This document shows positions 14,367 to 32,446 of a DNA stretch of 34,560 bases, in pieces. A program made the translations under genes and the position numbers. How positions within the stretch are numbered: position 1 is the stretch's first letter; each line of letters opens with the position of its first letter. The DNA is from a virus. Below the pieces are notes generated by a model that did no database searches, had not been told where the DNA came from, and saw only the letters and a program-made list of their open reading frames with translations. Location of the stretch: the UHGV virus genome UHGV-0119120. One strand, written 5' to 3'.

Positions 14367-14507
14367 CCGGTACAGGAATGCAAGGCTATTATTTAATCAC
14401 CTGAAATATAAGGATTTATTTGCAGTCTGATTTTGCGTGTAGTCCAAAAACTGCTCTGTGATGTATGGCGCTGAATGGGGTAAGTTACTCAATACCAGAT
14501 GTGACAT

Positions 14508-14756
14508 TTAGCGGCACATCATCCGGTAGCGCTCACCTGACGTTCTGGGATCCTCGAATTTTGATTCTAACTGGTGTACTGGCGGAGAATAGCAACCGCT
14601 GGAAACCATATTGGCGATATCTGCCGGGCTGCGGGGGTCGTCATACAGCATAATTAACGCTTCTGCGATTTCTTTGGTGCTAGCCTCCACGCTTAAAGGT
14701 TTAGTCTTAGCCATGACTTTCTCCAGTGCGATGATGCGTTTTATCCGTTCATTCAT
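14508..14756 (-). CDS. hypothetical small protein
   Basis: 82 aa ORF; its ATG overlaps the stop of the DUF5681-like gene (ATGAATGA). Confidence 0.35.
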   Translation of the reverse strand: MNERIKRIIALEKVMAKTKPLSVEASTKEIAEALIMLYDDPRSPADIANMVSSGCYSPPVHQLESKFEDPRTSGERYRMMCR

Positions 14757-15183
14757 TATGTTCTCCTTCCAGACGGGCTATGCGTTCTTCTAGCTCAGTT
14801 ATTTCAATGACTTTCATCATGCTGGCTAGCCCATCAAGTATAACCTTACCTTGATCTGCTGATAACGTCCCAGCGGCTATAGCTTTCATCACCGAACGGG
14901 CCAGCGACTGTGGGTCTGAGTCATCGAGATCAAAGGGCGTTGGAGGCAATATTGGTTTGCTTGGCGGGACAATGCGATCGAGGATGATTCTGCACGCTGC
15001 CATATCGCCTTTTCTGGCTTTTTTTAGAATGGCATCCGCTGCATCCTCCGCCCCCTCCGCCAGAAGGTTACGCAATTCAGTAGCTGTTTTTGGTCTACCT
15101 CCGGGATTCCCGCTATTCCCCTTAGCAAACTGGCCGCGCTTATTCCGTGTTACCTGTTTTTGCCTGTTCTCAGGTGCTGCCAT
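14749..15183 (-). CDS. DUF5681-like phage protein
   Basis: 144 aa; N-terminal KRGQFAKGNSGNPGGRPK motif characteristic of DUF5681; coiled-coil C-terminus. Confidence 0.5.
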   Translation of the reverse strand: MAAPENRQKQVTRNKRGQFAKGNSGNPGGRPKTATELRNLLAEGAEDAADAILKKARKGDMAACRIILDRIVPPSKPILPPTPFDLDDSDPQSLARSVMKAIAAGTLSADQGKVILDGLASMMKVIEITELEERIARLEGEHNE

Positions 15184-15228
15184 TATTAATCACCTTCAAT
15201 AAGTTACAGATCCTCTCATGGGTAGCTA

Positions 15229-15801
15229 TCACTCTCTCTCCAGATCCTCAAGAGAGCAGCAAATATGCTGTGTTGAAACAAAATAGCTCAGCATGCTGCT
15301 TACCTTGTTTGACGCGACGTAATTATAATGCTCGACCATCTTTGCTAACGCGATAATCTCCCACCAGTAATGCTTAACTAGCTTTAGCGAAATTAAATAA
15401 GCCCGGCTATAGAGCTTGTCGCAATCATCTCCTGTTGCGCCTTGGTTCCTGTATTGCTCAAGCACTTTCCGAATATCGCTGGCGTCTCCTTTCCCTCCAT
15501 TTTCCAGTAGTTTTTCAGGTGGTTCGCCTGAGTAAAGGTGTTGTGCCATTACGCCAGAAAAAGAGACGACCATCTGCGCCAGTTCATCTTTTCTGACGGG
15601 GAGATGTGAGCATACCGCCCGGCAATTATCGACCTCTTTGCCGTTAGCCAGTCGAGCAATACGAAACTCATCAGCAATAGATATCTCAATTTGCCTAGCA
15701 CCCGTAAACCACGCAGCCATCGCGTGACCGGCTTCATGGATCGCGATATTTCTGTCCCACATAGGGCTTTTGCTGAATTCAACAATTACGCCATCACTCA
15801 C
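15229..15801 (-). CDS. standalone zinc-metalloprotease domain protein, FtsH (peptidase M41)-like, no AAA+ module
   Basis: 190 aa; AIHEAGHAMAAW matches the FtsH catalytic HEAGHA zinc-binding motif; downstream KDELAQMVVSFSGVMAQHLYSG and GDASDIRKV parallel the FtsH SRQKLESQISTLYGGRLAEEIIYG and ASNDIKVAT segments. No Walker motifs. Confidence 0.5.
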   Translation of the reverse strand: MSDGVIVEFSKSPMWDRNIAIHEAGHAMAAWFTGARQIEISIADEFRIARLANGKEVDNCRAVCSHLPVRKDELAQMVVSFSGVMAQHLYSGEPPEKLLENGGKGDASDIRKVLEQYRNQGATGDDCDKLYSRAYLISLKLVKHYWWEIIALAKMVEHYNYVASNKVSSMLSYFVSTQHICCSLEDLERE

Positions 15802-15863
15802 GCTGCTTACTCTCCGTTAGATCTGTCATTTAGTTAAATTTAACTGCGTTGGGGGAGTCTCCA

Positions 15864-16040
15864 TCACACACTCCCTTCAACGGCCATTGATTCCAGCGCC
15901 TTAGCCACCAGCCCACGTGCAATTTGGTGGATAGACGGCGCTACGCCAATATCGGAGCGCTGGCGTTCGCGCTCCTGGATCTTGCAGATTGCGGCGAACT
16001 GGTCGCCAGAGAGTAATACCGGCTTAACGTTTGGCTTTTT
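15864..16040 (-). CDS. hypothetical small basic protein (possible DNA-binding)
   Basis: Likely start MKKPNVKPVLLSGDQ inside the 95 aa track ORF; overlaps the stop of the upstream 64 aa ORF. Confidence 0.3.
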   Translation of the reverse strand, partial: KKPNVKPVLLSGDQFAAICKIQERERQRSDIGVAPSIHQIARGLVAKALESMAVEGSV

Positions 16041-16218
16041 CATCCTGTTCACTCCAGAACTTTGCATTCGCTTCGTTGACTTTTTCCAGATTGCGGCATT
16101 CGTTGTTGAAGTTGTTACGCATCCGCAATTGCTCGGCCTGTTCACGGCCAAAGAGTTTACGCCCGGCGCTTTGCGGGTTTCCTGCTGCTAATTTTGGGTC
16201 ATAAATAGCCATGCTCAT
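16024..16218 (-). CDS. hypothetical small protein
   Basis: 64 aa ORF packed between the 187 aa gene and the next small ORF. Confidence 0.3.
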   Translation of the reverse strand: MSMAIYDPKLAAGNPQSAGRKLFGREQAEQLRMRNNFNNECRNLEKVNEANAKFWSEQDEKAKR

Positions 16219-16224
16219 TGCTCC

Positions 16225-16788
16225 TTACTTCGTGCGATGCCAGAAACTGGCGTTGTCGGTGTTAATGCTGCGAATGGCGTCGCCTGTGGAGAGAATCTTC
16301 GGTGAAACGTTGTTAACTCGCATGTAGTCGCCAACCTGCTCCAGAACGTCGATAGCCTGATCAAGCTGAATCTCTGATAGCGGGGTCGGATGTACCGCAC
16401 TGAATGCCTCAGCGGGTGCGTAACGCAGCACATCAAGCGCAACAAGGCGAGGATCGGTATCAGGAAGGGCATTGTCATACTTTGGCGCTACAGCGCGTAC
16501 CAGGCGCATAAATTCAGCGTCCATTGACGTTGGCGCGGTGGAGGTCGTGGAAGCGCCGCTGCCACTGCGAGTAATCATGTCACTATCGCGGGTGTACATC
16601 CGACGCAGGCGGTCGCCAGTTGCAATGCGTGTTGCACGTTCCTGCTTAAGCGTCGTTGCAAGATTCGCAATGACGAGAGCCACAGGAAGCGAGCAGGTCA
16701 GCCTTTCGAACGTATCATCGGAGTAAGTCACCTCGACGGTACCACCAGCGTTATCACTTTCCAGATTAACATTGGTTATCTGTTTCAT
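16225..16788 (-). CDS. hypothetical protein, first gene of the island accessory module
   Basis: 187 aa ORF with AAGG RBS; preceded by a palindromic operator-like region. Confidence 0.45.
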   Translation of the reverse strand: MKQITNVNLESDNAGGTVEVTYSDDTFERLTCSLPVALVIANLATTLKQERATRIATGDRLRRMYTRDSDMITRSGSGASTTSTAPTSMDAEFMRLVRAVAPKYDNALPDTDPRLVALDVLRYAPAEAFSAVHPTPLSEIQLDQAIDVLEQVGDYMRVNNVSPKILSTGDAIRSINTDNASFWHRTK

Positions 16789-16823
16789 TGTTCATAACCT
16801 TTTGCGTTGTTTAAATTCTAATC

Positions 16824-16840
16824 ATTGCATAAATTGCAAT
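16824..16840. promoter_or_regulatory. perfect 17-bp palindrome ATTGCATAAATTGCAAT (candidate operator)
   Basis: Read directly; lies about 40-60 bp upstream of the 187 aa gene start, with a related half-site ATCATTGCG at 16851-16859. Confidence 0.35.
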
Positions 16841-16938
16841 GTTAGTAAATATCATTGCGTATATTGAAATGATAAATCGACGTGATACTATGACGGTGAT
16901 CCACCATTGTGTGATTGCATAAACATGGTTAACAAAAG

Positions 16939-16973
16939 CCCTCGCCTCTCCAGCGCGGGCTTTTTCTTTTCCG
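16939..16973. terminator. hairpin with flanking T/A runs (candidate bidirectional terminator between origin and accessory operon)
   Basis: AGCCCTCGC-CTCTCCA-GCGCGGGCT stem-loop (8/9 bp) followed by TTTTTCTTTT on the plus strand and preceded by AAAA. Confidence 0.4.
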
Positions 16974-17072
16974 CTCCGCAAAGTTGCCGTTTCCGCATAC
17001 TGTCGCTTAGGCGATGCCCCTCCAAATTCGTAATTACTCTCCGAAAAAAACTCTATAGATAAACAAAAACAT

Positions 17073-17365
17073 GTTGGTTCAGTTGGTTCAGTTGGTTCAA
17101 TTTGTAAAGATTGTTGTTTTATAAGGATTATTTCTTTCGGAGTGAACCAACAAAGCCCCATTTTGAACCAACAAACGCTATTTTCGTGTTGGTTCAGTGG
17201 GAAAGATTTACAGGCCAGCCAGAAAAGGGCGTTGGTTCAATAGCGGCATTTGTTGGTTCAAAATGGGGCTTTGTTGGTTCGGTGTTGGTTCACTTACAAG
17301 CATGTAAATGCATTAAATACATACACTTATATTAATTAAATAGTTACTGAACCAACTGAACCAAC
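17073..17365. repeat. iteron array, putative origin of replication
   Basis: At least 11 copies of GTTGGTTCA / TGAACCAAC, including three tandem copies at 17073-17099. A 29-bp perfect inverted repeat GAACCAACAAAGCCCCATTTTGAACCAAC sits at 17145-17173 and 17252-17280, with an AT-rich stretch at about 17300-17345. Directly downstream of the primase-helicase stop. Confidence 0.6.
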
Positions 17366-17390
17366 AAAAAAACATCTCGTATGTGTGTTT

Positions 17391-20171
17391 TTATTCTTCA
17401 CCCTCTATCTCGTCGGGTCGTAGCTGGAGCACATAAACGTTTATCTGGCGTCCATCAATTCGCGGGGATTTACGCTGATACCCCCTTCCGCTGGCTGGCG
17501 GTTTCAGCACCCCAGCCCCGGCCAGCACACGGGCAAACTGTTTCGCGTTGAATCCCTTCGCAATCTCACCTTCGAATGCTGCCGGGAACGTGTAGAACAC
17601 TATCGGATCAGCATCATGCGCCCCTTTCTGACGGTACCCGGCCAAATCCCGAATCGGCATGTCAGCCGGGTCATAAGGGTAAGGTGCAAATCGGCTCAGT
17701 CCGTATGCATTAAGAAACGCCTCTGCCTGCTCGATGATCTGCTTATGCTCACGGTTCCCCGTGCCAAACTCTTTCACCCAGGCGTTAAAGCCATGCTGGA
17801 TGGCGTCCCGGCTTTCCTGCTCCCCCCAGCCAGTGACAGGCATCCCCAGCACCAGCGCCGCCTCCAGAATAGCGAACCGCTCGCCTACACGATGAACCTG
17901 TTCGCCATAATCAGCAGGGATAAGACTACGCCAGCGCTCCTGCGCCGCTTTGACAGCTTGTTTTGCCTCCTGCTGGTGGCCTGCAAGCCATTTAATCCAT
18001 TCACGGCCTGCGGCTCCGTGGTTCGTCTGGTAAGCCTCTTTGAGTGCGTCGGCGTGTTGCTTCCCGTTCTGGTACTCATGGTGCGTTACTGATTTCTCCA
18101 TCGGTAAATTAAGCAATCGCACCAGTTGCCCGGCCTTAACTTTCAGCCCACCAGCAGAAAGAAACGTCTCAATGTCCATTTCCCCGGTACTGATCGCCAC
18201 GGTGCGCCAGCGCTTTAACTCACGGTTGCCGCCCTCCTTGGCCCCCTGTAGCTTTCCGGCACCGTTAAACAGCGTGTAAGCAGACGTAGCAACGTCTTTG
18301 GCGCTACTGCCCTGCCCCACTTCATCCAGCGGTAACAGGCTGTCGTTATGCGCTTCCGCTTCGTTGGCGATACCCAGCGCTGTACCGTACCAGGTAAGGC
18401 GCAAGGCATCCGGTTCACCGTATAAACTGCTGGCAATGTTGGCGGTGGTTGTCTTCCCTGCGCTGGACTGCTCGAAAAGATGCACGCCGAACCCGTCAGC
18501 GCCAACAAGCCCGATCAGCGGCGCAGAAAGCGCAGCAGCAACACCCAGCATCATTGACGGGTTTCCCAGCGCAAGACGCGCCACCGAATCACGCCAGCTT
18601 TCCGGCGTTCCACTGACGGTATAGCCACCAGCCGCCGCACTCCGACCACTGAATAACAGCGGTATCTCTGGCTCACCAATAACATCACCATCCGGCATGA
18701 TGTACGCCCCGTTGTGCCAGCCTGTGGTGTGGCTGATCTGCCATTCCTTGCCGCTACCAGTTCGCTGCAGCCAGTCGGCCAGAATTGCCCGCAACGATGG
18801 TTTGGTTGTCACACTGACACCGCCGTTTTTCAGCGTGCGCCATCCCTCACGGTCGCCAATGTCCTCCCATGGAAGCGCACGGGTAACTTGCCCCCGGTTG
18901 CCGGGGACGTCCCAACGCAGGATCAGAAAGCGCTGTCTGGCGTTATCACTCCCCGCACCAGCAATCTCCAGCGGAGAGCATAGCCACGCCTCGGTATTGA
19001 TAATTTCTCCTGTGTCTTTGTCCACTTTCGGGGTGATCCAGTGAATGCCATCCGCACGGCTCTCTACTCGCGGTTTCAGATCGTCGTCGATACCAAGTTT
19101 TTTCTTGCCGCCGTCGATAGCTGTCAGTGTCGCACCCACTTTCTTACCCTCCGGTTGATACATTGAGTCGTTAAATGCTGCTGTGGCCGCTTCGAGGCCG
19201 TATTGCTGGTGGTAGTCGTTCCAGTCCGCTTTATAGTCCACTGGTGGCATGGAAACCCAGCCAGAAACGGCTTTCGCGGCTTTCTCTGCGGCCTCCTTGC
19301 CAGTGTTAACTTTCACTCCTTTAATTCCGTCACTTTCGCCCATCTGGTCGTTATCTGCGGCAATGATGATTTGTGCCTGTGGGTACTTCCGGCGCATCAC
19401 TTCGGCAACGGGTAGCAGGTTGCCCGCGTCAATTGCTGCCACTGCCAGCGCGTCCGGGCGCATCAGGTGAACTGAAAGGGCCGTCGCCAGCCCCTCGGCA
19501 ATTAAAACGCTCTGCGGCGATTCTGGCGCGTTTACGGCATGATATGCCCCGCGCTTTGCTGAACCTGTCAGGAGTCGCTTCTCTCCCTGCGGTGTAATGG
19601 TTTGCGCTGCTGCCACTGCGCCGGATTCGTCCACCAGCTCCAGCAATAACGAACCATCAGGCATAACCGGATAGTTAAACCCGGTCAGCCCTTTTGATTG
19701 CAGGTAATCAGATTCGCCCTGTGTGGCACTCTGGCGCATTCCGGCATACAGACGGGCAAACGTAGCCCTTCGCTGCTCTGCGTCCCCTGCTGCCTGTTTC
19801 TGGCGCTCCTGCTCACGCTGCTGGCGGTCAGCTTCCAGTTGCTCCCTTCTATGGCTCGCTGCCACCGGGTCGGATTGCGCTGCCAGGTAATCAATACCCA
19901 GCACGTCAGCGGCAAGCTGTGCCGCCTCCGTAGTGTCGCAGTTGTTAACCCGCTTGATTAAATCCAGCCCGTCACCAGCGCCACACTGGTTGCAGATAAA
20001 GCTACCGCGCCCGTTGTCGTCGAATCTGAAACGGTCTTTTCCACCACATGCAGGGCATGGAGAATGGCGGCGCGATGAATCAGGCACGTCGATAGACAAC
20101 CCAGCCAGCACATAAGGCCAGCGCCCTGCTGCGGCGCTGGTCACTTCGCGGATAAGGTCGATATTACGCAT
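17391..20171 (-). CDS. primase-helicase (zinc ribbon + Toprim primase + P-loop NTPase)
   Basis: Likely start MRNIDLI with AGGAGG RBS. N-terminal CPACGGKDRFRF...CNQCG zinc ribbon; Toprim-like acidic motifs (LIAEGLATA, IIIAADNDQMGE); Walker A-like SSAGKTT. Confidence 0.8.
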   Translation of the reverse strand: MRNIDLIREVTSAAAGRWPYVLAGLSIDVPDSSRRHSPCPACGGKDRFRFDDNGRGSFICNQCGAGDGLDLIKRVNNCDTTEAAQLAADVLGIDYLAAQSDPVAASHRREQLEADRQQREQERQKQAAGDAEQRRATFARLYAGMRQSATQGESDYLQSKGLTGFNYPVMPDGSLLLELVDESGAVAAAQTITPQGEKRLLTGSAKRGAYHAVNAPESPQSVLIAEGLATALSVHLMRPDALAVAAIDAGNLLPVAEVMRRKYPQAQIIIAADNDQMGESDGIKGVKVNTGKEAAEKAAKAVSGWVSMPPVDYKADWNDYHQQYGLEAATAAFNDSMYQPEGKKVGATLTAIDGGKKKLGIDDDLKPRVESRADGIHWITPKVDKDTGEIINTEAWLCSPLEIAGAGSDNARQRFLILRWDVPGNRGQVTRALPWEDIGDREGWRTLKNGGVSVTTKPSLRAILADWLQRTGSGKEWQISHTTGWHNGAYIMPDGDVIGEPEIPLLFSGRSAAAGGYTVSGTPESWRDSVARLALGNPSMMLGVAAALSAPLIGLVGADGFGVHLFEQSSAGKTTTANIASSLYGEPDALRLTWYGTALGIANEAEAHNDSLLPLDEVGQGSSAKDVATSAYTLFNGAGKLQGAKEGGNRELKRWRTVAISTGEMDIETFLSAGGLKVKAGQLVRLLNLPMEKSVTHHEYQNGKQHADALKEAYQTNHGAAGREWIKWLAGHQQEAKQAVKAAQERWRSLIPADYGEQVHRVGERFAILEAALVLGMPVTGWGEQESRDAIQHGFNAWVKEFGTGNREHKQIIEQAEAFLNAYGLSRFAPYPYDPADMPIRDLAGYRQKGAHDADPIVFYTFPAAFEGEIAKGFNAKQFARVLAGAGVLKPPASGRGYQRKSPRIDGRQINVYVLQLRPDEIEGEE

Positions 20172-20505
20172 GGTTGCCTCCTGCCACGGTCGCGCCCATA
20201 TCATTAATCATGCTTTGCCATATCTCGCGCCCGACGTCAGTCAATCCGTCCTTAGTGACGCAACGATCAAGAAGCTCGATCCCCACGGTTTCCCACTGCG
20301 GGTAGAACACTTTCATGGCTGCCAGTGTGTAGCTATCGATCAGGCTGCGAACGCCTTTTACTCCATTGACGATTTCCACACGGACGGCGAGGCCGTCCGC
20401 ATCAACCATGAAATAGTCCCCGCCGCTGGTGGCGGTAATGTGGTTATACAGTGCCGACGCATACTTATTCGCCAGCGCATTCAGTCGGAAATTTTTAGTA
20501 ATCAT
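20164..20505 (-). CDS. hypothetical protein (replication operon)
   Basis: 113 aa ORF; stop overlaps the primase start (ATGCGTAA). Confidence 0.4.
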   Translation of the reverse strand: MITKNFRLNALANKYASALYNHITATSGGDYFMVDADGLAVRVEIVNGVKGVRSLIDSYTLAAMKVFYPQWETVGIELLDRCVTKDGLTDVGREIWQSMINDMGATVAGGNHA

Positions 20506-20514
20506 GTCGCCCCC

Positions 20515-21141
20515 TCAGTGCGCCAGCGGCATTTCAGGCCAGCCGTTTTCATCCAGTTCAGCTATAAAGCTGTTGTGAAGTTCAGCAAGCGTTTCACGCC
20601 CGAACGGGGTCAGCTCGCCGCGCTCCGTGTCGATCATGGCCTGATAAAAAACAATGGCGTTCGCTGTTCCCTGCTCAACGCCGTAGCGCTCAATCATTGC
20701 GCCCTCGATGTTGTTCGCCATCGCCAGCCGTTCAGCAAACGGGTAAACCACCATGCCCGCATTACCATTGGAGTAAATCGCCACCTGCGATGATGTGCCG
20801 TCAGCCTCAGTAACCGTGGTGGTGCCGTTCTCGCGCTTCATCTCAGAAACGAACGTCGCAGCAATCAGCCAGCGCCACATAGTGACGTTATGCTGCGCGG
20901 TGAAGTCGAACCAGCCACGCTCCCCGCCGTCAGCCACTGCCAAATGCAGGGCAAATCCTTCATCGGTCTTATTGTCATACTCACCCGCATCCAGACGTAC
21001 TACGACTTTTTCGTAGTTGATAAGAGCAACATGCTCATACATTCCGGCATCATTGCGGGTCATGATATTGACGCCGTGCGGTGTGGCTTCGGCGTGGAAC
21101 AGGTCGGGATTTCCCGGTTTAATGGTCAGTATATTGCTCAT
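20515..21141 (-). CDS. hypothetical protein (replication operon)
   Basis: 208 aa ORF, tightly packed in the operon. Confidence 0.45.
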   Translation of the reverse strand: MSNILTIKPGNPDLFHAEATPHGVNIMTRNDAGMYEHVALINYEKVVVRLDAGEYDNKTDEGFALHLAVADGGERGWFDFTAQHNVTMWRWLIAATFVSEMKRENGTTTVTEADGTSSQVAIYSNGNAGMVVYPFAERLAMANNIEGAMIERYGVEQGTANAIVFYQAMIDTERGELTPFGRETLAELHNSFIAELDENGWPEMPLAH

Positions 21142-21359
21142 GCTTTGCCCTCCCGATATTCACGCATTACATGGTCAGCTAGCTTGCTTTCAGCCTCGCT
21201 CATTGCTTCGGGCACACCGTGTAACAGCGTCAGAATGGAACCTATAAGGCGTGGTAAATCGGGATCTGTTTTATTGGTGGTGCTCTCCAGCCACATGGAC
21301 AAAACAGCCTGTGCCTGTTCAATCTGGCAGGCAGCATCAATCAGTTGTAACTGGCTCAT
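21138..21359 (-). CDS. hypothetical small protein
   Basis: 73 aa ORF with 4-nt overlaps to neighbours. Confidence 0.35.
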   Translation of the reverse strand: MSQLQLIDAACQIEQAQAVLSMWLESTTNKTDPDLPRLIGSILTLLHGVPEAMSEAESKLADHVMREYREGKA

Positions 21360-21619
21360 GCGCTGCCCTCCGCATCAATTCTGGCTATATCGACAATCGT
21401 CAGGACTTTACTAAGCCAGCAATACGCGATGGCTGCTTGCTCAACTTCGAGGAGTGGTAATAAATCGGTCATAACGTGAGCCAGCCCATTGCGGGCGCGG
21501 GTCATGCGTTCTGCGGTACGCTCTGCCAGCGTGAAAGAGTCAGGGTACGGCTGTTCGCGGGATAGCATCGCCTCGGCCTCAAGATCTGCAGGATGGCGAT
21601 AGATGGTATGAATGTTCAC
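21356..21619 (-). CDS. hypothetical small protein
   Basis: 87 aa ORF with GTG start, overlapping neighbours. Confidence 0.35.
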   Translation of the reverse strand: MNIHTIYRHPADLEAEAMLSREQPYPDSFTLAERTAERMTRARNGLAHVMTDLLPLLEVEQAAIAYCWLSKVLTIVDIARIDAEGSA

Positions 21620-21795
21620 GCTGCCACCTCCTGAATACGAGTAATACGAACGTGCTTATAACCGCCTTTATTCGCCAGTAGTTGCGCAGTCGATTTAGCT
21701 GTTTCTGGACTGGTGCTAGTCATGGTGTAGTGAATGCCGACGGTGTTACCGCGCTTGTTAACAGCGTATCCGTCGATCTGGAAGGTTTTACGCAT
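21616..21795 (-). CDS. hypothetical small protein (59 aa, below ORF-track cutoff)
   Basis: ATG overlaps the stop of the recombinase gene (AATGCGTAA); translation MRKTFQIDGYAVNKRGNTVGIHYTMTSTSPETAKSTAQLLANKGGYKHVRITRIQEVAA. Confidence 0.3.
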   Translation of the reverse strand: MRKTFQIDGYAVNKRGNTVGIHYTMTSTSPETAKSTAQLLANKGGYKHVRITRIQEVAA

Positions 21796-22666
21796 TTCCG
21801 ACCTCCATTGCTAAACGGGACTGGATAGCTGCCGCTTTACTGCCTAATTGCAGGTAAGTACGAGTTATCGCAGGGTTGCTATGACCCAGCATTTCAGAGG
21901 CCACTAATAGGCCCTGTTCGCCACCTGCGGACATGAGGTTAAAGGCGGCTATTTTGCGGCTTGAGTAGGCGCTCAGGCGCAATTTAGCGTTAATGAAACG
22001 GGTAAACCACGCCATGACGCCATGAAGTTTGCGCCAGATGGTTTGGCGAGTAACGCTACCTTCCAGACGTTGACAACGGTTACTTTCGATTTGAGAGCGG
22101 GAAAATACCAGGTCGTCCTCCACCAGATTCCGATCCTGACGGTCACGCAGCCGCTTGATAATGCCGGGGGGTAACTGTTTGGTGTCGTGCTTGACGTCAG
22201 CCTTAGCCACCAGCCCGAACACAATCGCCTGTTCTTCGTCGTTCATATCGGCGGCCAGTTCATCACAGCCGATACTATCCCACTTCATGTAGGCGATATG
22301 GTCAGCGGCGAGCCGCGCGGCGTCCTTGCGCTGCTGGCGCACAATTTCAATACCTTTGCGGGTTGCCCGCGCTTCTGCGGCTTTGGTCTGTTTGGAAACG
22401 ATAATTGTCGCCTGTCCAGTTTCCCAATTGATGCAGGAATAGCGCAGGTTGCAAACGTCGCTGGTACGCCAGCCGGTTACGGTCGCAATATCCCACCAGA
22501 GCAACACCCAATCGGGCTGTGTCTGCTGGATGCGCTCGCGTAGCTTGCGCTGCTCGTCACGGTCATAGACAGGGGTCATGGTGCGACTGCCCTTTGTGCT
22601 CGCCGCTTTAACGACATTGCCGCGCAGCTCGCGGGCTTTGGCTGTCAGAGTCTGGAGGTTAAACAT
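21788..22666 (-). CDS. tyrosine recombinase / integrase-like protein (second recombinase)
   Basis: Likely start MFNLQTL at 22666; C-terminal LGHSNPAITRTYLQ resembles the His...Tyr catalytic end of tyrosine recombinases; candidate box I Arg in TGWRTSDV. Confidence 0.55.
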   Translation of the reverse strand: MFNLQTLTAKARELRGNVVKAASTKGSRTMTPVYDRDEQRKLRERIQQTQPDWVLLWWDIATVTGWRTSDVCNLRYSCINWETGQATIIVSKQTKAAEARATRKGIEIVRQQRKDAARLAADHIAYMKWDSIGCDELAADMNDEEQAIVFGLVAKADVKHDTKQLPPGIIKRLRDRQDRNLVEDDLVFSRSQIESNRCQRLEGSVTRQTIWRKLHGVMAWFTRFINAKLRLSAYSSRKIAAFNLMSAGGEQGLLVASEMLGHSNPAITRTYLQLGSKAAAIQSRLAMEVGNA

Positions 22667-22847
22667 GACGCACCTCCGGCACTGGCAGACGTGCGGCCAG
22701 AGACAAAATAAAGTGCGGCGCAAGGATGCGGCGGGCTTCGCGTTCGGTCGCAGCCTCAACGGACAGACGGCAAGGTTTGGCTTTTTTATCGTGGCGATTC
22801 AGCGCGAGAAAGCGCCAGGTGAATTTTGAGTGTGCGGATCTAGCCAT
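22659..22847 (-). CDS. small protein upstream of the recombinase (possibly Icd-like)
   Basis: 62 aa ORF; stop overlaps the recombinase ATG (CATGTTTAA); ends ...FILSLAARLPVPE. Family assignment is from memory only. Confidence 0.3.
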   Translation of the reverse strand: MARSAHSKFTWRFLALNRHDKKAKPCRLSVEAATEREARRILAPHFILSLAARLPVPEVRHV

Positions 22848-23167
22848 TTTTAGCGGCTCCTAGAACATATTGAAGGAGTCTCGCCAGATGCTGCTAAACA
22901 TGGGTGGCGAGACGTGACGGGGTTAGCAGACTGGCGTTCTAGGAAACCAGCAGGCGTTAAGCCTCCCCACCACGCCCCGCCATAAATCGGGGGTATGGTT
23001 GGTTTTCGGGCGTAAAAATACCGCTATACGGAAATCAGCGGCTACCCGCTAGAACGTTCAGGCTGCTAAACCCGGCACCCGTTTTGTGAGGTGCGAAATA
23101 ATCATAACCACACTACCCCGTTAAGCGCAAGGGAAATATCCCCTGCGCCCACAATGCAAACTTGTTA

Positions 23168-24238
23168 TTAGTACCCGCGAGAAGCGTAAACTCGTGCCAT
23201 GCCAGCCCAATGAGAGAAAAGAATTTCCCACTTAATTGGGTTGTAGGTAATACTTCCATCGACTGCGGCAGCATTCCATGCCCGATCAGAAATAGAGCTA
23301 TCTTTAGCAGTTTTCCCCCATTCAACAATATCCCTTGCTAAAGCCTGTACACATGCTCGACTGACTACCTTTTCGTCAACGTACGCCCCAACATCAGAGC
23401 ATGACTCCATACTCATGTTCAGGCTATTTTTAAGGGACTCCAGCCCGGCCACTGACATAAAGCGACGACCATTAGCGTATGCAACACCGTCATTCCTGAT
23501 AGTGAACTTAACAGTGTGGAATGCGTCAACAATCATCCGCTGCTCTGGCGTCGGGTTCTGCCATAGCACAAGGTTAATCTCTCTCTCAGAAGCTATTGAT
23601 TCTGCTTTCTCACGCTTAACTCGTGCATCCCGTTCTGCCTGGTATTGTTTTTGATTTTCATCATGAGCCTTTTGGTAACTAGAGGCTAATGCGTCTCTGT
23701 TTTTGGCAAATGCTGCAATGCTATTTTTGAAATCGCTTCTGCTAACCTTGTTTAACCCCATACTCCAGCGGTCATTTTCGTAATCATCATAAATGGCATC
23801 AACTTTTGCCGGATTACTCAGCACAGTCGCCAGATTAACCGGAATTTTAGCCATCTCGTCACTGATTCTCGCTACATGTTCGAAAGTCGATATAGAGCCA
23901 ACTTCATGACTCCCATACTCATGATAAGCGGCATAAAAAATTGGAATAGATTGAGGTTTTTCGTTCACTGACTTAATGATGCTTTTTTCATCACATGACT
24001 GTTCACCCCATTTGAAAACACTTTTCCCACCATTTTTGTATGTGTTGCAATCATCAATACCCAAACGAACCAGCGCATCCCATCCGGGCCGTTTCTTGTA
24101 ATCCTCGCTCTTGACAACATGCATTGTGGTTAGGGCTTTCGCAGGATCTAACTTGCCAGCGGTACAAGACACGATAGGAAAGGCCAGAGAAGCGCAGGCT
24201 GCTATCCTGAAAAGGCTCGTCAATCTTTCTTTTTTCAT
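23168..24238 (-). CDS. lipoprotein, unknown function (island cargo)
   Basis: 356 aa; N-terminal MKKERLTSLFRIAACASLAFPIVSC has a lipobox (IVSC); central Lys/Glu-rich coiled-coil segment; gene is visibly more AT-rich than its flanks. Confidence 0.55.
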   Translation of the reverse strand: MKKERLTSLFRIAACASLAFPIVSCTAGKLDPAKALTTMHVVKSEDYKKRPGWDALVRLGIDDCNTYKNGGKSVFKWGEQSCDEKSIIKSVNEKPQSIPIFYAAYHEYGSHEVGSISTFEHVARISDEMAKIPVNLATVLSNPAKVDAIYDDYENDRWSMGLNKVSRSDFKNSIAAFAKNRDALASSYQKAHDENQKQYQAERDARVKREKAESIASEREINLVLWQNPTPEQRMIVDAFHTVKFTIRNDGVAYANGRRFMSVAGLESLKNSLNMSMESCSDVGAYVDEKVVSRACVQALARDIVEWGKTAKDSSISDRAWNAAAVDGSITYNPIKWEILFSHWAGMARVYASRGY

Positions 24239-24402
24239 CGTCCTAATGCTCTTTCAAACCAAGAATGTAGGACATAGTAAATTGTGGTTAATGGCAAGTC
24301 GATATAAAGGCCGGGTTATTGGCTTCGGTGCCAATATCATTTCTCCGAAATTTCATAACGCCTGTAATCGCTCGTTTCCCCATCTTGGGGACATTTCAAA
24401 AC

Positions 24403-24523
24403 TGCGAATCAAAGTGCGAATGGAACTGCGAATTCGCAAAGAGAGAGCGCCGCTCAAAGCAGGCCGGATAAGGCTTCGCGGACATATTGCGAATGCGAAT
24501 CCACCAGAAACGAAACGCGAATC
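24403..24523. repeat. cluster of TGCGAAT heptamer repeats (candidate operator array)
   Basis: TGCGAAT at 24403, 24415 and 24427 (12-bp phasing), the third within the palindrome TGCGAATTCGCA; further copies at 24488, 24495 (GCGAAT) and 24517 (CGCGAAT). Lies 165-285 bp upstream of the lipoprotein gene. Confidence 0.4.
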
Positions 24524-25079
24524 ACCCATAAACAAAACCGATACGCAGGGAGCGTACTGCCCGTATTCAATCGGCCGAAAAGTCAGCCGATTAAAATCAT
24601 GCCCGGCTATCCCCTGAAATTTCAGGAGATCGAGAGCCACCAGCAGAGAACCGTTCATGCCATCGGTAACTTGCAGCCCGAAGCTCAAATCTGAGCGTTG
24701 ACCGCCAGCCAGAAGAAACCATTTTAAATCCCGCGCCTTCTCTTTGGATGAACAGGGTTACTCCCCGTAATGCTGTGAACTGCCACGATGATTCGGGGTT
24801 GTGTTGCGCTGGCCTTTGAGTCCCGCACAAACACTGACCCACAAAATTTTTGTAGGTGACTGGCCCTCTTGATGAGGTGCTGTTTTGCGTAACCCTTAAT
24901 GAGTTGTGCAAAGGCTCAACCCTTTAAAAGGGTTGCCTAACCACCGGCGATAGTAATAACCGCCAACCTATGAACACTATGAACACCTTTGAGCATTTTT
25001 CTATAAACATTCCACTACTGCCCTATTTGATGCCTTTCTCTGGCTGGCCTGTGTAAGTTACCGTTGCTGGGAACTGACA

Positions 25080-25115
25080 ATAAAAAAGGCTTGCCCCTCT
25101 CAGGTAACAAGCCTT
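25080..25115 (-). terminator. rho-independent terminator downstream of the AlpA-like gene
   Basis: Minus-strand hairpin AAGGCTTG-(14 nt)-CAAGCCTT followed by TTTTTT, about 20 nt after the stop at 25133. Confidence 0.5.
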
Positions 25116-25132
25116 GTCTATCGCTCTGGATC

Positions 25133-25345
25133 TCACTCACTACAGATTCCGCGCTTTTGGCTCTGTCTTCCGATCCACGCCTCCACCTCATCGCGATACC
25201 AGCAATTGCGGCCGCCAACTTTGAAGGGCATCGGAAAGCCGTTCCCCTCATCCTTCAGAAATTCATAGAACGCAGAATCAGAACGGTAGCGTAGACGGGC
25301 TTTAACTTCGACTTTGAGCAAAATATCACTGTTAGATATGGACAT
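25133..25345 (-). CDS. alpA: AlpA-family transcriptional regulator / excisionase-like protein
   Basis: 70 aa; ...GFPMPFKVGGRNCWYRDEVEAWI matches the AlpA helix-turn-helix pattern; GAGG RBS and two TATAAT-like elements upstream. Confidence 0.6.
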   Translation of the reverse strand: MSISNSDILLKVEVKARLRYRSDSAFYEFLKDEGNGFPMPFKVGGRNCWYRDEVEAWIGRQSQKRGICSE

Positions 25346-25400
25346 AAAAACCTCATTATATATTCGATATAATTATATATGATTTGAATAAAAAAAACGC
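25346..25400 (-). promoter_or_regulatory. AT-rich candidate promoter for the AlpA-like gene
   Basis: Minus strand shows TATAAT-like hexamers within 40 nt upstream of the start codon, between the integrase terminator and the gene. Confidence 0.3.
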
Positions 25401-25420
25401 ATTCCGGTTAGCTTTGGGCA

Positions 25421-25446
25421 TAAAAAAAGCTGGCTTAAAGCCAGCT
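25421..25446 (-). terminator. rho-independent terminator downstream of the P4-type integrase
   Basis: Perfect inverted repeat AGCTGGCTT-A-AAGCCAGCT followed on the minus strand by a run of 7 T. Confidence 0.55.
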
Positions 25447-25487
25447 ATACCCGTTTGAAATCATGATTATCCAGAAATGGATGTGCC

Positions 25488-26717
25488 TTACACAACCAGC
25501 CTCAAGCCCTTATCGCCGCTGGTCTCCAGTATTTCGCCACACTCTGCGGCCTCGATAAAGTCCCCCCACCATTGCATTAAAACCCGGCGTTTTTCCAGAT
25601 AGTCGCTACGGTTATAAACATTTCGAATCGCATCGGCGCTTTTGTGAGCGAGTGCAGCCTCAATCACATCAGGGTTGAACCCCTCGTCATTTAAAACTGT
25701 AGATGCCAACGCCCTGAACCCATGAGGAACAATCAGCCCTTTAAACGACGTTTTGTGTATCCCGGCCTGAGTCGCACAGCGTGAGATCGGCTTATTTTCT
25801 TTTCGCCATGAGGGGAAAACATAATCGCAGCGCTTCCACTTTTCGGCCTCTTTAAGCACGTTTATAGCCTGGCTCGATAATGGGACTACGTGGGGGCGCT
25901 TTCCTTTCATCCGGCTTGCAGGGATTTGCCAGATTGAGTTATCAAAATCAATCTCATTCCAGAGAGCGCCGCCAGCCTCCGAAGGCCGGACCATCGTAAT
26001 GATCTGAAATAATAATGCCAGCTTTGATGGCTCCCATAAGCTCAACTCGTTCCATGCGCTTAAAAATTCGGGCAACCGCTCTTTCTGTAAAGTCGCTCTT
26101 GGCTCGTTTTTTTCAGCCGGGAATGCTTTACCAATTTTCGATAGCGGGTTGTGCTCAATAACCCCAATGTTTACCGCATAATCCATTATGGCGTTGATGG
26201 TAATAACCATTTTCGTAAGCGTTGATGGCCTTTCCCTGAAAGGTTTAAAAGCCTGAATAGTATCGGCTGCGTTTATTTTATGTACCGTGGTATGCCTAAA
26301 AATCGTGGAAAGATGCTTCAACGTCACATTGTGCGATTCAAGCGTGTTGCTTCTCGCACCTTCTTTAATCTTGATTTTTAGCCATTCATCGGCAACGGCC
26401 TGAAATGACTGCGCGTACATTTTACGCTGTTCATTCCTGGCATCTTTTTTGACTTCGTTCGGATCTATCCCTCGCGCTACCATACGGCGCAGTTTCGAAC
26501 GTTCCTCCCTCGCTTCGGACAAAGTAAACTCCGGGTATCGTCCAATAGTATAGGTTTGTCTCTTCTTCGTTACCGGGTGTACATACCGAAAACGCCATGA
26601 CTTACCGCCCCGGCTTGTGATGTAAAGCAACAAACCGAAACCATCGTGCAAACTGAAATCCTTGCCCTGTGCCTTCGCGCTTTTCACTTCGACGCTAGTT
26701 AGTGGCCTAACAATCAT
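25488..26717 (-). CDS. int: P4-type tyrosine integrase
   Basis: 409 aa; N-terminal ...LHDGFGLLLYITSRGGKSWRFRY is the typical arm-binding (DUF4102-like) signature of P4-family integrases. Confidence 0.75.
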   Translation of the reverse strand: MIVRPLTSVEVKSAKAQGKDFSLHDGFGLLLYITSRGGKSWRFRYVHPVTKKRQTYTIGRYPEFTLSEAREERSKLRRMVARGIDPNEVKKDARNEQRKMYAQSFQAVADEWLKIKIKEGARSNTLESHNVTLKHLSTIFRHTTVHKINAADTIQAFKPFRERPSTLTKMVITINAIMDYAVNIGVIEHNPLSKIGKAFPAEKNEPRATLQKERLPEFLSAWNELSLWEPSKLALLFQIITMVRPSEAGGALWNEIDFDNSIWQIPASRMKGKRPHVVPLSSQAINVLKEAEKWKRCDYVFPSWRKENKPISRCATQAGIHKTSFKGLIVPHGFRALASTVLNDEGFNPDVIEAALAHKSADAIRNVYNRSDYLEKRRVLMQWWGDFIEAAECGEILETSGDKGLRLVV

Positions 26718-26931
26718 TCAACACCTCTCTGGCTACCATGTAATGCAAACGGCGCATGATTCTCTTTCTAGTCCCTCATGTACCGAATCAAAGCGAAATC
26801 CGGCGAATAAATCCGCACATGTTCGGAGTGTCATTTTTATGGTTCAGGCCAGTAACGCCGTATGATTCCGAACGATAACGCACTGATTAATAGATATTAG
26901 TTGCATAAGGTACAGATATGCAGTCATTGGA

Positions 26932-28952: not shown

Positions 28953-30270
28953 TCTCGATATCCTCGTCGGTAATGGATGCCCCGATGCCAGTGACGTCAG
29001 AGTTTTCGCGCAGGTCGGTCATCGCCGCCTTACGCGTCATCAATCCGTCGCCCAGCGCGGTGCTGATCGCGGTGGTGGTGTTTACGGCCACCGTTGAGCG
29101 GTCAACATCAGACATTTGCCATAGCGGGTTAAACTCAAACGTGAAATCGCCCGGCAGCGGCTTTCCGAGTTCCGAGCGGTGCATAATGTCCAGTATCCGG
29201 CGCATCGGCAGCCGTAAGCGGCGCTCCTGCAATGAGCTCACCCGGTCGTAATAGTTGGCGAGGTCTGCATCACCAGTAGAGAAGCCTTTCGGGGATTGAC
29301 CGAACAGGCGTACCAGCGGGATACCAACGGCACCGCTGATCTGCTCAGCAAACTGCGAAAGAATGTCATCCAGACCACTAAAGCTGTACTGGTGGGTTTC
29401 GAACTTATCCCGCGAGTCCATGAGCGTCATACCTTCATTGCTCTGGAACTGGCGGATCAGGTCGATGTTCTTCAGCAACGCTTCGAACGCCGGGCCTCCA
29501 AGCGCGATAAGCTCGCGCAACTTCTCCACGCTATAGGTACGCAGATGCGCTTTATAGACCAGCTGCGCCGCGCCGACAGTAGCGCTATCGAACGCAGTAA
29601 GCCGATCCCAGATACGCTCTACAACCGACATTCCCCATTCGTTTTCGGTCATCTTCTGCTGGAATGGCAGCGTGACGCCATCAAAGCGGATCAGGCGGCT
29701 GTGATGGATGCGCCAGGCCGGAATGCCCGTTGCGGTGGTCACCACGTCGTAAAACTCAGGCTTGCCGAGGTCCGGCCCCATCTCTTTAATGCGGCGTGTC
29801 AGCACCGGGTTAATCATCCAGCGGTCGAGCGGGAGAATGCCCTTAAACTTGCCCTCGCCAATGGTTTCGAGTCGCAGCGGGGTCATTGGTGCTTGCCCCT
29901 CGATCATGATGAAGCCGACCGCGCCGCCGTAGAGGCGCGACCATTTCAGCACGTCGTTCAGCGCATCCCAGATCTGCAACTCATCCAGTTGCGCTTCGAG
30001 GGTGCCACGGTCTTTGGCGTCAATCTCCGAAGTGATGCGAATGCCCTTTCGGGTCATATCGTCCGGGATAGCGTCGACCGCTTCACCGATAACCCACGAA
30101 CCGCGATATGACCATTCCACCAGCATGCGGTTGCGGCTGGTGAAGTTCGCCCGGTAGGTCGATGCTGAATGCTGGTTAGGCGTCTGCATCCCAACGCGGG
30201 CGACGAAGTTCTCGTAGCCGTCAGCGGTGGCCTGTGCAGTTCTCCGCAGGGCTTGTTTGTTTCGTGCCAT
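28801..30270 (-). CDS. portal protein
   Basis: 489 aa ORF immediately downstream of the large terminase (start overlaps its stop), canonical order and size. Confidence 0.65.
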   Translation of the reverse strand: MARNKQALRRTAQATADGYENFVARVGMQTPNQHSASTYRANFTSRNRMLVEWSYRGSWVIGEAVDAIPDDMTRKGIRITSEIDAKDRGTLEAQLDELQIWDALNDVLKWSRLYGGAVGFIMIEGQAPMTPLRLETIGEGKFKGILPLDRWMINPVLTRRIKEMGPDLGKPEFYDVVTTATGIPAWRIHHSRLIRFDGVTLPFQQKMTENEWGMSVVERIWDRLTAFDSATVGAAQLVYKAHLRTYSVEKLRELIALGGPAFEALLKNIDLIRQFQSNEGMTLMDSRDKFETHQYSFSGLDDILSQFAEQISGAVGIPLVRLFGQSPKGFSTGDADLANYYDRVSSLQERRLRLPMRRILDIMHRSELGKPLPGDFTFEFNPLWQMSDVDRSTVAVNTTTAISTALGDGLMTRKAAMTDLRENSDVTGIGASITDEDIENAEDEAPPGIGELGDKPPESPGGDPISNEPTADSAGGRGYRKWSLRWFKR

Positions 30271-31892
30271 CAGGCCTGTCTCCCTAGCAGCTCCCAGATG
30301 TTCAGGGCTGAATTCATTGGCGCGTAGCTGATCATCACCGAGTCGGCAAGGTTTGGCGACCGGGTTCCATCAGGCTGTTTATCAATAACGATTTTTCCCA
30401 CACCATTAATGGAATAGGTCGGCTGCGAAAGCTCGATGATGAGTTTATCTTTGAGTGCCATGCTACTGCTGATTGAGATGATTTCGTCCGGGTTGTAATC
30501 CATACCTTCAACCACGGCGCGCCAGGTATTCTGAAAAAGTTTACGTAACCGCCACCAGCTCTGGGCTTTGGCGTTAGCGAAGAAGTCCTTGTTCAGGCGG
30601 GCGGCCTGTCCGTTGTCCCCGCGAACAGCTTCGTCGTCCGGATCAAATACCGCGCCACTACCTCGAAACGGTGTGGCGAGTATTGACGGTCGGCGCGCAG
30701 CGTTACGCAGTTCGTTGATAGCGCGTGCATCGCCGCGAACGCCAGCGCCCAACCCGTCCTCGTCAAAGCGAAACTCTTCGAGGTTGTCCTGTTCGCAAAA
30801 ACCGAAGACCTTCTCGACGGACTGATAAATGTCGCTGCCCACACCAGACCATTCCCGCACATTTTCCAGGAGGAAGCCATGACGGGTGGAAAAGGCATTT
30901 TTGTCCCTGCCTTCATCAGCGACATCCATCGCGCCAAGTCGTTTGCCTGTTGGCTGGATACCCAGTTTGATATGTGCATCAACGGCAGCCTGTACCCATT
31001 CGGATGGAATCAGGACGCCTTCCGCTGATGCGCTGTAGTTCAGATCAAGTTCCTGTGCCACCACCACCGGATTATCGATTTTCTCGCATTCCCTGCGATA
31101 CCACTCTTCATCCTTGCGAGGATCATCCCGCCAGTGGAATGTGAATACCGGTATCTTCCCGCCATGACGCTTCTGAGCGAACGGGTTAGCCATGCCGTTA
31201 ACTGAACTCAGGTCGATACGGCAACGCGTCGTTTGTGACAACGCCGCATCAATCAGCAGAGGACGCTGAAGGAATGCAGCCTCATCAACCAGATAAAGCG
31301 TGGTACGGTCACCACGACCAATATTATCGCCAGCCTCGCCTTTGATAACGGCACCAGTTTCAGGAAACTCAACACGCATATATGGCGCGTGCTTCTTCTC
31401 GCTCCACGAACCGCGAAACTCTACAGGTAGCGTTTCCACGAACTTGCGTGCCTTCCAGAACAATGCTTTCGGGTCACCAGTGCTGTCGACGTATTCCTCT
31501 TTACGGGAGCCGAAACCGATAACCATTTCTTTGTTGAAGAGACAAAGCGAGCAGGCCAGTCCGATCGCGGTCCAACTGAGCCCCATTTCACGGGATTTTT
31601 CGGTAATACCATTCTCCCGATTGCCCCAGCGTTCCATAATCCAGTGGATCCACTCCTCCTGCTTAGGGAAGAGTAAAAACGGAATGGTCACCGGCAGGCC
31701 ATAATCAATATTACGCGGGTCCGTTGTCATGCCCCAGTCGATGATGAACTGAGCCGGGTTGGTTCGGTAAAACTGTTTTAGTGCTGGCAATATTTCAGGG
31801 TTCTGGCGAATGCGCTGTAAGCGTTCCATCCGCCATTCAAAAACCATCTGGTAATCAGGATGTTTAAAATCGAAGGGAAATGGTAACGGCAT
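30270..31892 (-). CDS. terL: terminase large subunit
   Basis: 540 aa; Walker B-like LYLVDEAAF; follows the small terminase gene with a 2-nt gap. Confidence 0.75.
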
Positions 31893-31894
31893 AC

Positions 31895-32446
31895 TTAGCC
31901 CATCATTTTTTTATACGCTTCTGCAGCCTGCTCCGGCGTTAAGTTGGTAATTTCTGTTCTGACTGGTCCTCCGTCAGCACCAGTCACTTCATTTTTGACA
32001 TTGTCTTTAAACGCCTGAACAGAAACATGACGCCCGAGCAACTCAAGGTTTTTAACCTTATCAGGCCATTTGATTTTCTTCAGAAGTGCGGCGCTATCTG
32101 CGGATACTATCTCCACGACATCCATTCCTGATAGCGTTGTGCGCCATACCTTAGGCCAGTCTTTAATGGGCTTTAGCTCACCGTTTTGCAGGAGAATGTC
32201 GAGCACATCCATCTGGTCGATTTCAATAAGGCGATTAAGTACATATTCTGCATTAATACCAACAAGATCATTGCGTTGCGCTTTCAGTTCGGCGATTCTG
32301 AATTGTATGTCAGGTTTTGACAGGTTTTCGGATGCGGTACGGTTAGCTGTCTTTGCGCTGTACCCCGCCCGAATAGCCGCTTGTGTGGCGTTTAAATCGA
32401 TGAGGTACTCGCGACAGAACATCTCTTGTTTGTCGGTGAGTGCCAT
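31895..32446 (-). CDS. terS: terminase small subunit
   Basis: 183 aa; N-terminal [34 protein letters not shown]... matches the Terminase_2-type HTH N-terminus. Confidence 0.7.

Follow-up and report, generated by a model that had tools for sequence, protein, structure and literature searches.

What can a protease domain of the FtsH type do when it stands by itself? FtsH-type proteases are understood as ATP-driven membrane machines, and a lone soluble catalytic domain should not degrade folded proteins. The question is raised here by the virus genome UHGV-0119120, a stretch of 34,560 nucleotides (nt), called the window throughout, in which a minus-strand open reading frame (ORF) of 190 amino acids (aa) carries the zinc-protease motif HEAGH. 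An earlier note on this DNA had read the ORF as a satellite-encoded relative of FtsH reduced to its catalytic domain, and had gone on to propose that the protein co-assembles or competes with host FtsH and thereby steers the lysogeny decision of a helper phage. Our analysis bears out the observation and, in part, the interpretation. Within M41 the protein belongs, as a divergent member, to a large and uncharacterised branch of stand-alone proteins, and its gene is swappable cargo of a satellite of a known kind. The explanation as a whole, a stand-alone M41 protease that is carried as satellite cargo and serves, as a best guess, as an effector in phage conflict, is one that we hold with middling confidence, and we regard the protease as a moderately interesting lead, short of a discovery.

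An FtsH-type protease domain without the rest of FtsH

The gene and the residues on which its assignment turns are the following.

15229..15801, minus strand: gene for a 190-aa stand-alone metallopeptidase domain of the M41 (FtsH) type, an ORF with a GTG start
15810..15815, minus strand: Shine-Dalgarno sequence GGAGAG, 8 nt 5' of the GTG, read directly from the sequence
15724..15738, minus strand: codons of HEAGH (H22, E23, A24, G25, H26), two zinc ligands and the catalytic glutamate, from family conservation and alignment to the HEAGH of FtsH
15484..15486, minus strand: codon of D106, predicted third zinc ligand, invariant in the family alignment described below (A2) and aligned with the Asp of the FtsH motif 'GAxND'

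Eleven close homologs, 50–99% identical to the protein, share its length and N-terminus, and on this comparison the ORF is a real, conserved gene. The only named source copy of the window allele is annotated as 'hypothetical'.

Taken singly, the sequence is insufficient for placement in M41. Pfam returned two sub-threshold matches, to Peptidase_M50B (20 bits) and to Peptidase_M41 (15.5 bits), each covering about 20 residues around the HEXXH; the latter (PF01434) spans residues 17–36 only and does not reach the gathering threshold of 29.9 bits. PHROGs, NCBIfam and PADLOC held no match for the protease sequence, and searches of the PDB with the single sequence or a close-family profile found FtsH only at E ≥ 0.2. 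Homology needed a profile of 62 members. Among 1.84 billion cluster representatives the close-family profile identified 65 relatives of 54–293 aa, none of which is a full-length FtsH, and 62 sequences of relatives found in this way make up the alignment A2. Mean column identity in A2 is only about 13%, and five columns are invariant, namely H22, E23, H26, G83 and D106. The A2 profile matches the FtsH protease domains in the PDB with E-values of 2e-18 to 8e-18 and essentially whole-domain coverage, and it aligns the 'G..D' of the family with the 'GAxND' of FtsH, whose Asp we take to be the third zinc ligand of FtsH. D106 has both the spacing of such a ligand, about 75–85 residues after the HEXXH, and its G-x-x-D context. 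On the alignment and the structural model, zinc is predicted to be held by H22 and H26 of the HEAGH together with D106, with E23 as the catalytic base. Individually, 45 of the 62 members of A2 match PF01434 at E ≤ 0.01, the best at 1e-14, and membership in M41 is thus reached transitively, because the members of A2 and the A2 profile match M41 and FtsH.

The match to the M41 fold runs across the whole domain. The protein contains the entire M41 domain, including its C-terminal helices, without an AAA+ unfoldase and without a membrane anchor: there is a single HEAGH, at residues 22–26, a sequence scan of the 190 residues found no Walker A or B motif, and no stretch is hydrophobic enough to span a membrane (maximum hydropathy 0.88). 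The N-terminal transmembrane helices and the AAA+ module with Walker A and B motifs that identify a full-length FtsH are both missing, and the NCBIfam model FtsH_fam is not matched by the window protease, while an allele from a satellite in Escherichia coli ABWA45 reaches 16.9 bits against a cutoff of 600. As judged from these comparisons, the ORF encodes a soluble stand-alone zinc metallopeptidase domain of the FtsH type (MEROPS M41). FtsH itself (PDB 2DI4, 2CE7, 3KDS, 7TDO) has about 640 aa with an AAA+ module and transmembrane helices, whereas the window protein has about 190 aa without either and is optional cargo on a mobile element. A further structure, PDB 5IQJ, is an uncharacterised Vibrio cholerae protein which, at 131–134 aa, is shorter than the window protease.

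The assignment to M41 was also weighed against other families with a HEXXH motif. With respect to the ImmA/IrrE family (Peptidase M78), Pfam gave no match to PF06114, and no IrrE or ImmA structure is among the top fold matches. The features of site-2 proteases (M50/M50B), a HEXXH within a polytopic membrane protein and a domain-wide match, were not found either. Lit of the e14 prophage and ImmA/IrrE are HEXXH zinc proteases of prophages and integrative elements that have one specific target each and need no ATP; their likeness to the window protease is a functional analogy only, since folds and families differ and there is no sequence or fold match. The structural part of the earlier note therefore stands: the ORF with its HEAGH is there and starts at a GTG, the protein is a catalytic-domain-only relative of FtsH with an intact zinc site, the AAA+ module and membrane anchor are absent, and profile and structure searches place it in M41, with no sign of the alternative ImmA/IrrE or SprT placement that the note had considered.

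The protease is not a recent copy of the host ftsH gene, because the A2 profile is closer to the FtsH proteins of Aquifex, Thermotoga and Thermus (E about 2e-18) than to that of E. coli (4.6e-14), and because the fold matches to FtsH structures have only 12–23% identity. A separate observation concerns C60 and C64 (nt about 15610–15624), which form a C-x-A-V-C motif that is invariant in the close family and not kept in the wider family; they lie in a beta region of low prediction confidence beside the active site, and could provide an extra metal site or a disulfide.

Stand-alone M41 proteins in other genomes

The architecture is not peculiar to the window. With a cutoff of E ≤ 1e-5 the A2 profile matches more than 5,000 database proteins; the best 120 of these are almost all 155–260 aa long, with a precomputed match to PF01434, and bear names such as 'ATP-dependent Zn protease', 'Peptidase family M41' or 'hypothetical'. 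The ABWA45 allele (WP_157698515.1), which is 21% identical to the window protein, has the same M41-only architecture of 155–250 aa and sits in the same cassette of a sister satellite, is named 'peptidase M41 family protein' by PGAP. The remark in the earlier note that it knew of no described example is half right, since over 5,000 stand-alone M41 proteins are in the databases, and no paper on what they do came up when the literature was searched for such proteins or for proteases of satellites. Stand-alone M41 proteins are thus abundant in sequence space, familiar to annotators and functionally unexplored.

Among the contexts inspected, relatives of the window protease are found on other PICIs (phage-inducible chromosomal islands) of Gram-negative bacteria (Tatumella and the elements L002 and L010-12), and more distant members of the family on other integrative elements with int and AlpA or int and HTH_17 genes. 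A tblastn search with the protease found no match in 50,697 phage genomes and none in 72,556 plasmids, and in BFVD only giant-virus FtsH proteins and one unnamed protein of 230 aa were retrieved.

Swappable cargo of a helper-embedded satellite

The features that define the genomic setting of the protease gene are listed below.

14376..26915, minus strand: helper-embedded PICI satellite of about 12.5 kb, delimited by the empty site, junction alignment and an annotated sister element
14369-14375 and 26909-26915: 7-bp cores GGTACAG at the satellite ends, from junction alignment
14495..15870, no strand assigned: variable cargo cassette in the late zone of the satellite, with the M41-like gene, a DUF5681 gene and an 82-aa ORF, from three-way DNA alignment
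15864..16043, minus strand: conserved small protein of 59 aa (MKKPNVKPVLLSG...SIHQIARGLVAKAL), cassette leader directly upstream of the protease
14749..15183, minus strand: 144-aa DUF5681 protein downstream of the protease (Pfam DUF5681, 43 bits)
14508..14756, minus strand: 82-aa ORF, the last before the satellite end, from the ORF list

All large genes of the window are on the minus strand, the satellite genes thus lying on the strand of the helper late genes. Along this strand the helper terminase, portal, head-morphogenesis and DUF2213 head-protease genes are followed by the 12.5-kb insert and then by the Gp24 cement gene, the major capsid gene and the remaining late genes. Junction alignment places the insertion at codon 7 of the gene for the helper Gp24 head-cement protein, and in an insert-free prophage of E. 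coli 2021CK-01361 the cement gene comes directly after DUF2213. The first seven codons of the cement gene (MTAYLY.) remain beside the integrase, and an internal Met serves as the new start of the truncated gene. With its integrase, AlpA-like gene and primase, its co-oriented insertion in a late gene and the intact gene at the empty site, the element belongs to the helper-embedded PICIs, satellites that Tommasini, Mageeney and Williams described as a class in 2023 (PMC10111431), and the protease is indeed satellite-encoded, as the earlier note had supposed. According to the main text of that paper, elements of this class have in common with that of the window an integrase, an AlpA-like gene, a C4 RNA, a primase and a dynamic late zone, as well as insertion in, and co-orientation with, a helper late gene that is restored on excision; the 'dynamic late zone', in its terms, is where the protease is located. 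The paper lists 14 insertion sites; its main text does not mention a protease, M41 or the cement-gene site.

The closest annotated relative of the window is a prophage of E. coli ABWA45. When the DNA of the window, ABWA45 and a third satellite, ET791, is aligned, the three are near-identical up to the 3' end of the 59-aa gene and again over the last ~110 bp before the attachment (att) core, and between these conserved flanks the cassette contents are unrelated, on satellite backbones that are 95–98% identical. The cassettes compared were:

Window: 190-aa protease, DUF5681 protein, 82-aa ORF
L024: 190-aa protease, DUF2280 protein
ABWA45: 239-aa protease allele (21% identical to that of the window), 62-aa ORF
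ET791: 239-aa allele, DUF2280 protein
ECONIH5: 197-aa gene, allele of the 239-aa type broken by IS5, DUF2280 protein
EC2001: no protease; six captured baseplate and spike genes, DUF2280 protein

Further protease alleles occur in elements from IMG/VR. The proteases differ in base composition from their surroundings, with a guanine-plus-cytosine (GC) fraction of 0.47 in the window and 0.41 in the ABWA45 allele against 0.54–0.58 in neighbouring backbone genes, and they are rare: among 5,426 complete E. coli genomes the DNA of the 190-aa allele is absent, the 239-aa allele is present in two, and a broken copy in one more brings the genomes with any allele to three. The protease is therefore low-GC, swappable cargo in the variable 3' (late/accessory) cassette rather than part of the backbone, in an operon that runs in the direction of the helper late genes. 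In L016 (4205-8175, E. coli EC2001) and L042 (17247-20258), the slot of the protease is taken by captured genes for baseplate, plug and spike proteins, five or six in number; the helper gene that harbours L042 is that of the major capsid protein, not the cement gene.

The genes around the protease were examined for a possible partner. In many satellites the variable cassette is immediately preceded by the gene for the 59-aa protein (48–91% identity), irrespective of the cargo: the protein is encoded ahead of M41-like genes in the window, L001, L002, L003-6 and L017, and other cargo in EC2001 and ECONIH5. It looks like a ribbon-helix-helix protein by eye only, and neither Pfam nor a profile search of the PDB gave a match. 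A role as dedicated partner of the protease, as an antitoxin or repressor, was rejected, given that the protein also precedes the baseplate genes of EC2001 and the 197-aa gene of ECONIH5. A secreted protein of 111–116 aa that follows the protease gene in L002, L011, L012 and L017 was likewise considered and is likelier to be part of the captured baseplate block; the baseplate-gene cluster in the late zone of L042 includes a gene whose product has, by eye, the same motif at its N-terminus, and the secreted protein shows no relation to the 356-aa lipoprotein discussed below. Downstream of the protease, the slot of the DUF5681 protein is held by DUF2280 proteins in sister satellites and by only a 62-aa ORF in ABWA45. 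Proteins with DUF5681 and DUF2280 are presumably small-terminase-like, suggesting that the slot before the satellite end is a candidate site for interchangeable packaging genes of this type. In the literature searched, DUF5681 is mentioned by a single, unrelated paper, and the 82-aa ORF has no family match. The last listed ORF in L039 and L042 has an N-terminus resembling a helix-turn-helix (HTH).

A lipoprotein gene that accompanies the protease

One gene of the satellite outside the cassette recurs with the protease, an association that goes beyond the earlier note and is a new lead.

23168..24238, minus strand: predicted lipoprotein of 356 aa (signal peptide and IVSC lipobox, Cys25 invariant; GC 0.447)

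This protein, predicted to be in the outer membrane, has four further invariant cysteines and a central coiled-coil-like stretch, and no match in Pfam, PHROGs, PADLOC, NCBIfam or the PDB. Its family comprises 44 clusters, in which all organisms named are Enterobacterales and all names given are 'hypothetical'; a scan of genome contigs for the lipoprotein found nothing. In L003-6, an unrelated metagenomic element, a gene for a 53%-identical lipoprotein comes directly after the protease gene, with overlapping start and stop, and in Dickeya, Yersinia and L039 the lipoprotein gene again has an M41-like gene as its immediate upstream neighbour (with gaps of 57, 1 and 67 nt, respectively). Five further satellite lineages carry the two genes 6–8 kb apart on the same element. 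The three complete E. coli genomes, out of 5,426, that contain the lipoprotein gene are the same three that have a protease allele, and the EC2001 satellite lacks both genes. Where the two are paired, the lipoprotein is 53–100% identical to the window copy, as against 21–52% for the protease. Because tight adjacency recurs in different arrangements, a functional link between the two proteins is plausible.

Possible roles of the protease

Deprived of an unfoldase, the protease would be able to cut exposed or unfolded stretches only. Given that a lone catalytic domain should reach no more than such accessible segments, a narrow range of one or a few specific targets may be expected, rather than general quality control. 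Our best guess, a tentative one to which we assign somewhat less than an even chance, is that the protein is an effector in phage conflict, either in defence against competing phages or in control of the helper, possibly together with the lipoprotein. The fast-diverging body of the protease would recognise a phage-encoded protein, it would probably cooperate with the conserved 356-aa outer-membrane lipoprotein of the same satellites, and it would not act by joining the rings of host FtsH. A conflict role is ranked first because documented hotspots of immune genes in PICIs lie downstream of pri and at the 3' end (PMC11364771) and because relatives of the protease gene adjoin a gene for a BstA_C-domain protein and SocA/Panacea genes. 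In a more specific form, which seems to us rather unlikely, protease and lipoprotein would be a hitherto unrecognised two-gene conflict module of Enterobacterales satellites, in which the ATP-independent protease, evolving fast, would confer specificity and cleave a phage protein and the lipoprotein would be its envelope partner. If such a module exists, it would provide the first function for thousands of orphan stand-alone M41 proteins, and if phage or helper proteins are the targets, a new enzymatic class would be added to satellite-helper interference or anti-phage defence; if there is no measurable effect, the protease is merely another divergent cargo gene. The locus is in any case a tractable entry point, since the helper of this E. 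coli satellite is defined, alleles have been swapped in nature, a sister element naturally lacks the protease and there is a candidate partner gene.

Several observations weigh against a conflict role, or against the lipoprotein as partner in it. Inference from location is weak evidence, and the two protease alleles, the lipoprotein and six further ORFs of the satellite are all without a match in PADLOC-DB v2. Scans for promoters and terminators around the protease performed no better than on shuffled sequence, and the 62-nt gap upstream of the gene has no promoter-like site; the gene may therefore rely on the late operon for its expression, an arrangement as compatible with interference with the helper as with defence. 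Distant family members also occur on plain chromosome, as at one of the sites inspected, without a mobile-element context. L042 has the lipoprotein without the protease, as does a Photorhabdus prophage (38% identity), L002 and L017 have the protease without the lipoprotein, and part of the co-occurrence may stem from shared descent of related PICIs. The predicted structure of the protease, finally, is of low confidence at residues 44–59 and 161–164.

The late-operon position brings in the possibility that the target belongs to the helper's own assembly line. Made from the satellite late operon by read-through of helper late transcription, the protease could cleave a morphogenesis or packaging protein of the helper, such as the small terminase or scaffold, and bias packaging towards the satellite, by analogy with the SaPI protein Ppi, which blocks the small terminase subunit (TerS) of phage. 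The gene is in the late zone, has the orientation of the helper late genes and lacks a promoter-like site directly upstream; it immediately precedes the last gene (DUF5681 or DUF2280) in the window, L013, L024 and ET791; its alleles diverge fast, as expected of a factor that tracks helper proteins; and, in an anecdotal comparison of three, the 239-aa allele is paired with a PBSX-type large terminase subunit (TerL) in its helpers and the 190-aa allele with a Terminase_2 TerS. However, sister satellites in helpers of the same type do without the protease, which also shuffles independently of the DUF2280 or DUF5681 gene, distant family members are on chromosomes and on elements without primase or packaging genes, and the small-terminase likeness of DUF5681 and DUF2280 is presumed. 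We consider this reading possible but on the unlikely side. A different division of labour, which we think improbable, would have the lipoprotein as an exclusion or defence factor and the late protease as a counter-measure that removes its unfolded precursor in the lytic cycle and so avoids self-harm, analogous to Tai and Ati. It would account for the strong co-occurrence and repeated adjacency of the two genes, and for the location, in E. coli elements, of the lipoprotein gene in the early/dynamic zone and of the protease gene in the late operon; a protease lacking an unfoldase could act on an unfolded Sec precursor, and there is a phage precedent for a defence gene paired with late counter-defence (PMC11364771). 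Yet two proteases that are 21% identical accompany a lipoprotein that is 100% identical, which argues that the lipoprotein does not drive protease specificity, L042 retains the lipoprotein with no protease to counter it, and the lipoprotein matches no family of known function.

Two further readings draw on known regulatory proteases. The presence of a zinc metalloprotease on an integrative element recalls anti-repressors of the ImmA type, which would cleave a repressor of the satellite or the helper and cause induction; some distant relatives adjoin int and an HTH_17 or AlpA gene, and the small conserved protein encoded upstream is DNA-binding-like, by eye only. The fold is nevertheless M41 and not M78, with no Peptidase_M78 match and no IrrE-like structure among the top matches, the gene is at the far end of a late operon that, to judge from its position, is expressed after induction, the small upstream protein has no detectable family and also precedes cargo other than proteases, and L002 already has a separate HTH+M78 protein, all of which makes an anti-repressor quite improbable. 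Very improbable, and the least favoured of the active models, is the mechanism of the earlier note, in which the protein would enter or compete with host FtsH hexamers, change the stability of CII, CIII or sigma-32 and so affect the helper's choice between lysis and lysogeny. The M41 domain contributes to the formation of the FtsH hexamer, and the domain in the window is complete, C-terminal helices included. The evidence against it is indirect: identity to any FtsH is only 12–23%, with the thermophile proteins closer than, and no special similarity to, that of E. coli; the gene lies at the end of a late operon, not among early or regulatory genes where the lysis-lysogeny choice would call for it; it is dispensable cargo that sister satellites lack; and the catalytic residues, superfluous for a pure assembly poison, are strictly conserved. 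FtsH binding is also hard to reconcile with alleles that are 21% identical, and so differ by up to 79%, on near-identical backbones, because the host protein is invariant. The same note had raised the alternative that the protein may be a protease toxin. That the gene is an inactive or decaying remnant without function is hardly credible: although it is rare and one copy (ECONIH5) is broken by IS5, the ORF is full-length with a good ribosome site, it is intact in many independent elements of several genera, and the catalytic tetrad is invariant across a family with a mean column identity of ~13%.

Other features of the satellite and its helper

The remainder of the satellite, read along the minus strand from the integrase end, contains the following features.

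25488..26717, minus strand: satellite integrase of 409 aa with arm-type and catalytic domains, from Pfam
25133-25345: AlpA-like ORF of 70 aa, by eye, with AlpA annotated in the sister element
22900-22987, minus strand: C4 antisense RNA (Rfam, 75 bits against a gathering score of 45)
Adjoining the C4 RNA: Icd-like ORF
21788-22759, minus strand: second tyrosine recombinase, shorter than the integrase, with an annotated length of 292 aa in sister elements
17391..20204, minus strand: satellite primase with Zn-ribbon, Toprim and DUF927 domains, from Pfam
17072-17311: GTTGGTTCA iterons just downstream of the primase gene, from repeat analysis
16225..16788, minus strand: conserved backbone protein of 187 aa, first gene of the post-replication operon
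16024-16218: ORF of 64 aa after the 187-aa gene

C4, the P4-type immunity RNA reported for the 'Bro zones' of PICIs, is located between the lipoprotein gene and the Icd-like ORF. The cluster of GTTGGTTCA iterons is probably the replication origin of the satellite, and a 116-aa ORF listed over it (16811-17161) is probably spurious. The late operon that follows consists of the genes for the 187-aa, 64-aa and 59-aa proteins, the protease, the DUF5681 protein and the 82-aa ORF. The helpers, for their part, have head and tail genes that are about 98% identical and different terminase modules (window 30270-32446, L001 32939-35021): that of the window comprises a Terminase_2 TerS and a 540-aa TerL, and those of ABWA45 and ET791 a PBSX/Terminase_3 TerL and a 251-aa protein, a difference that indicates mosaic exchange of the packaging module.

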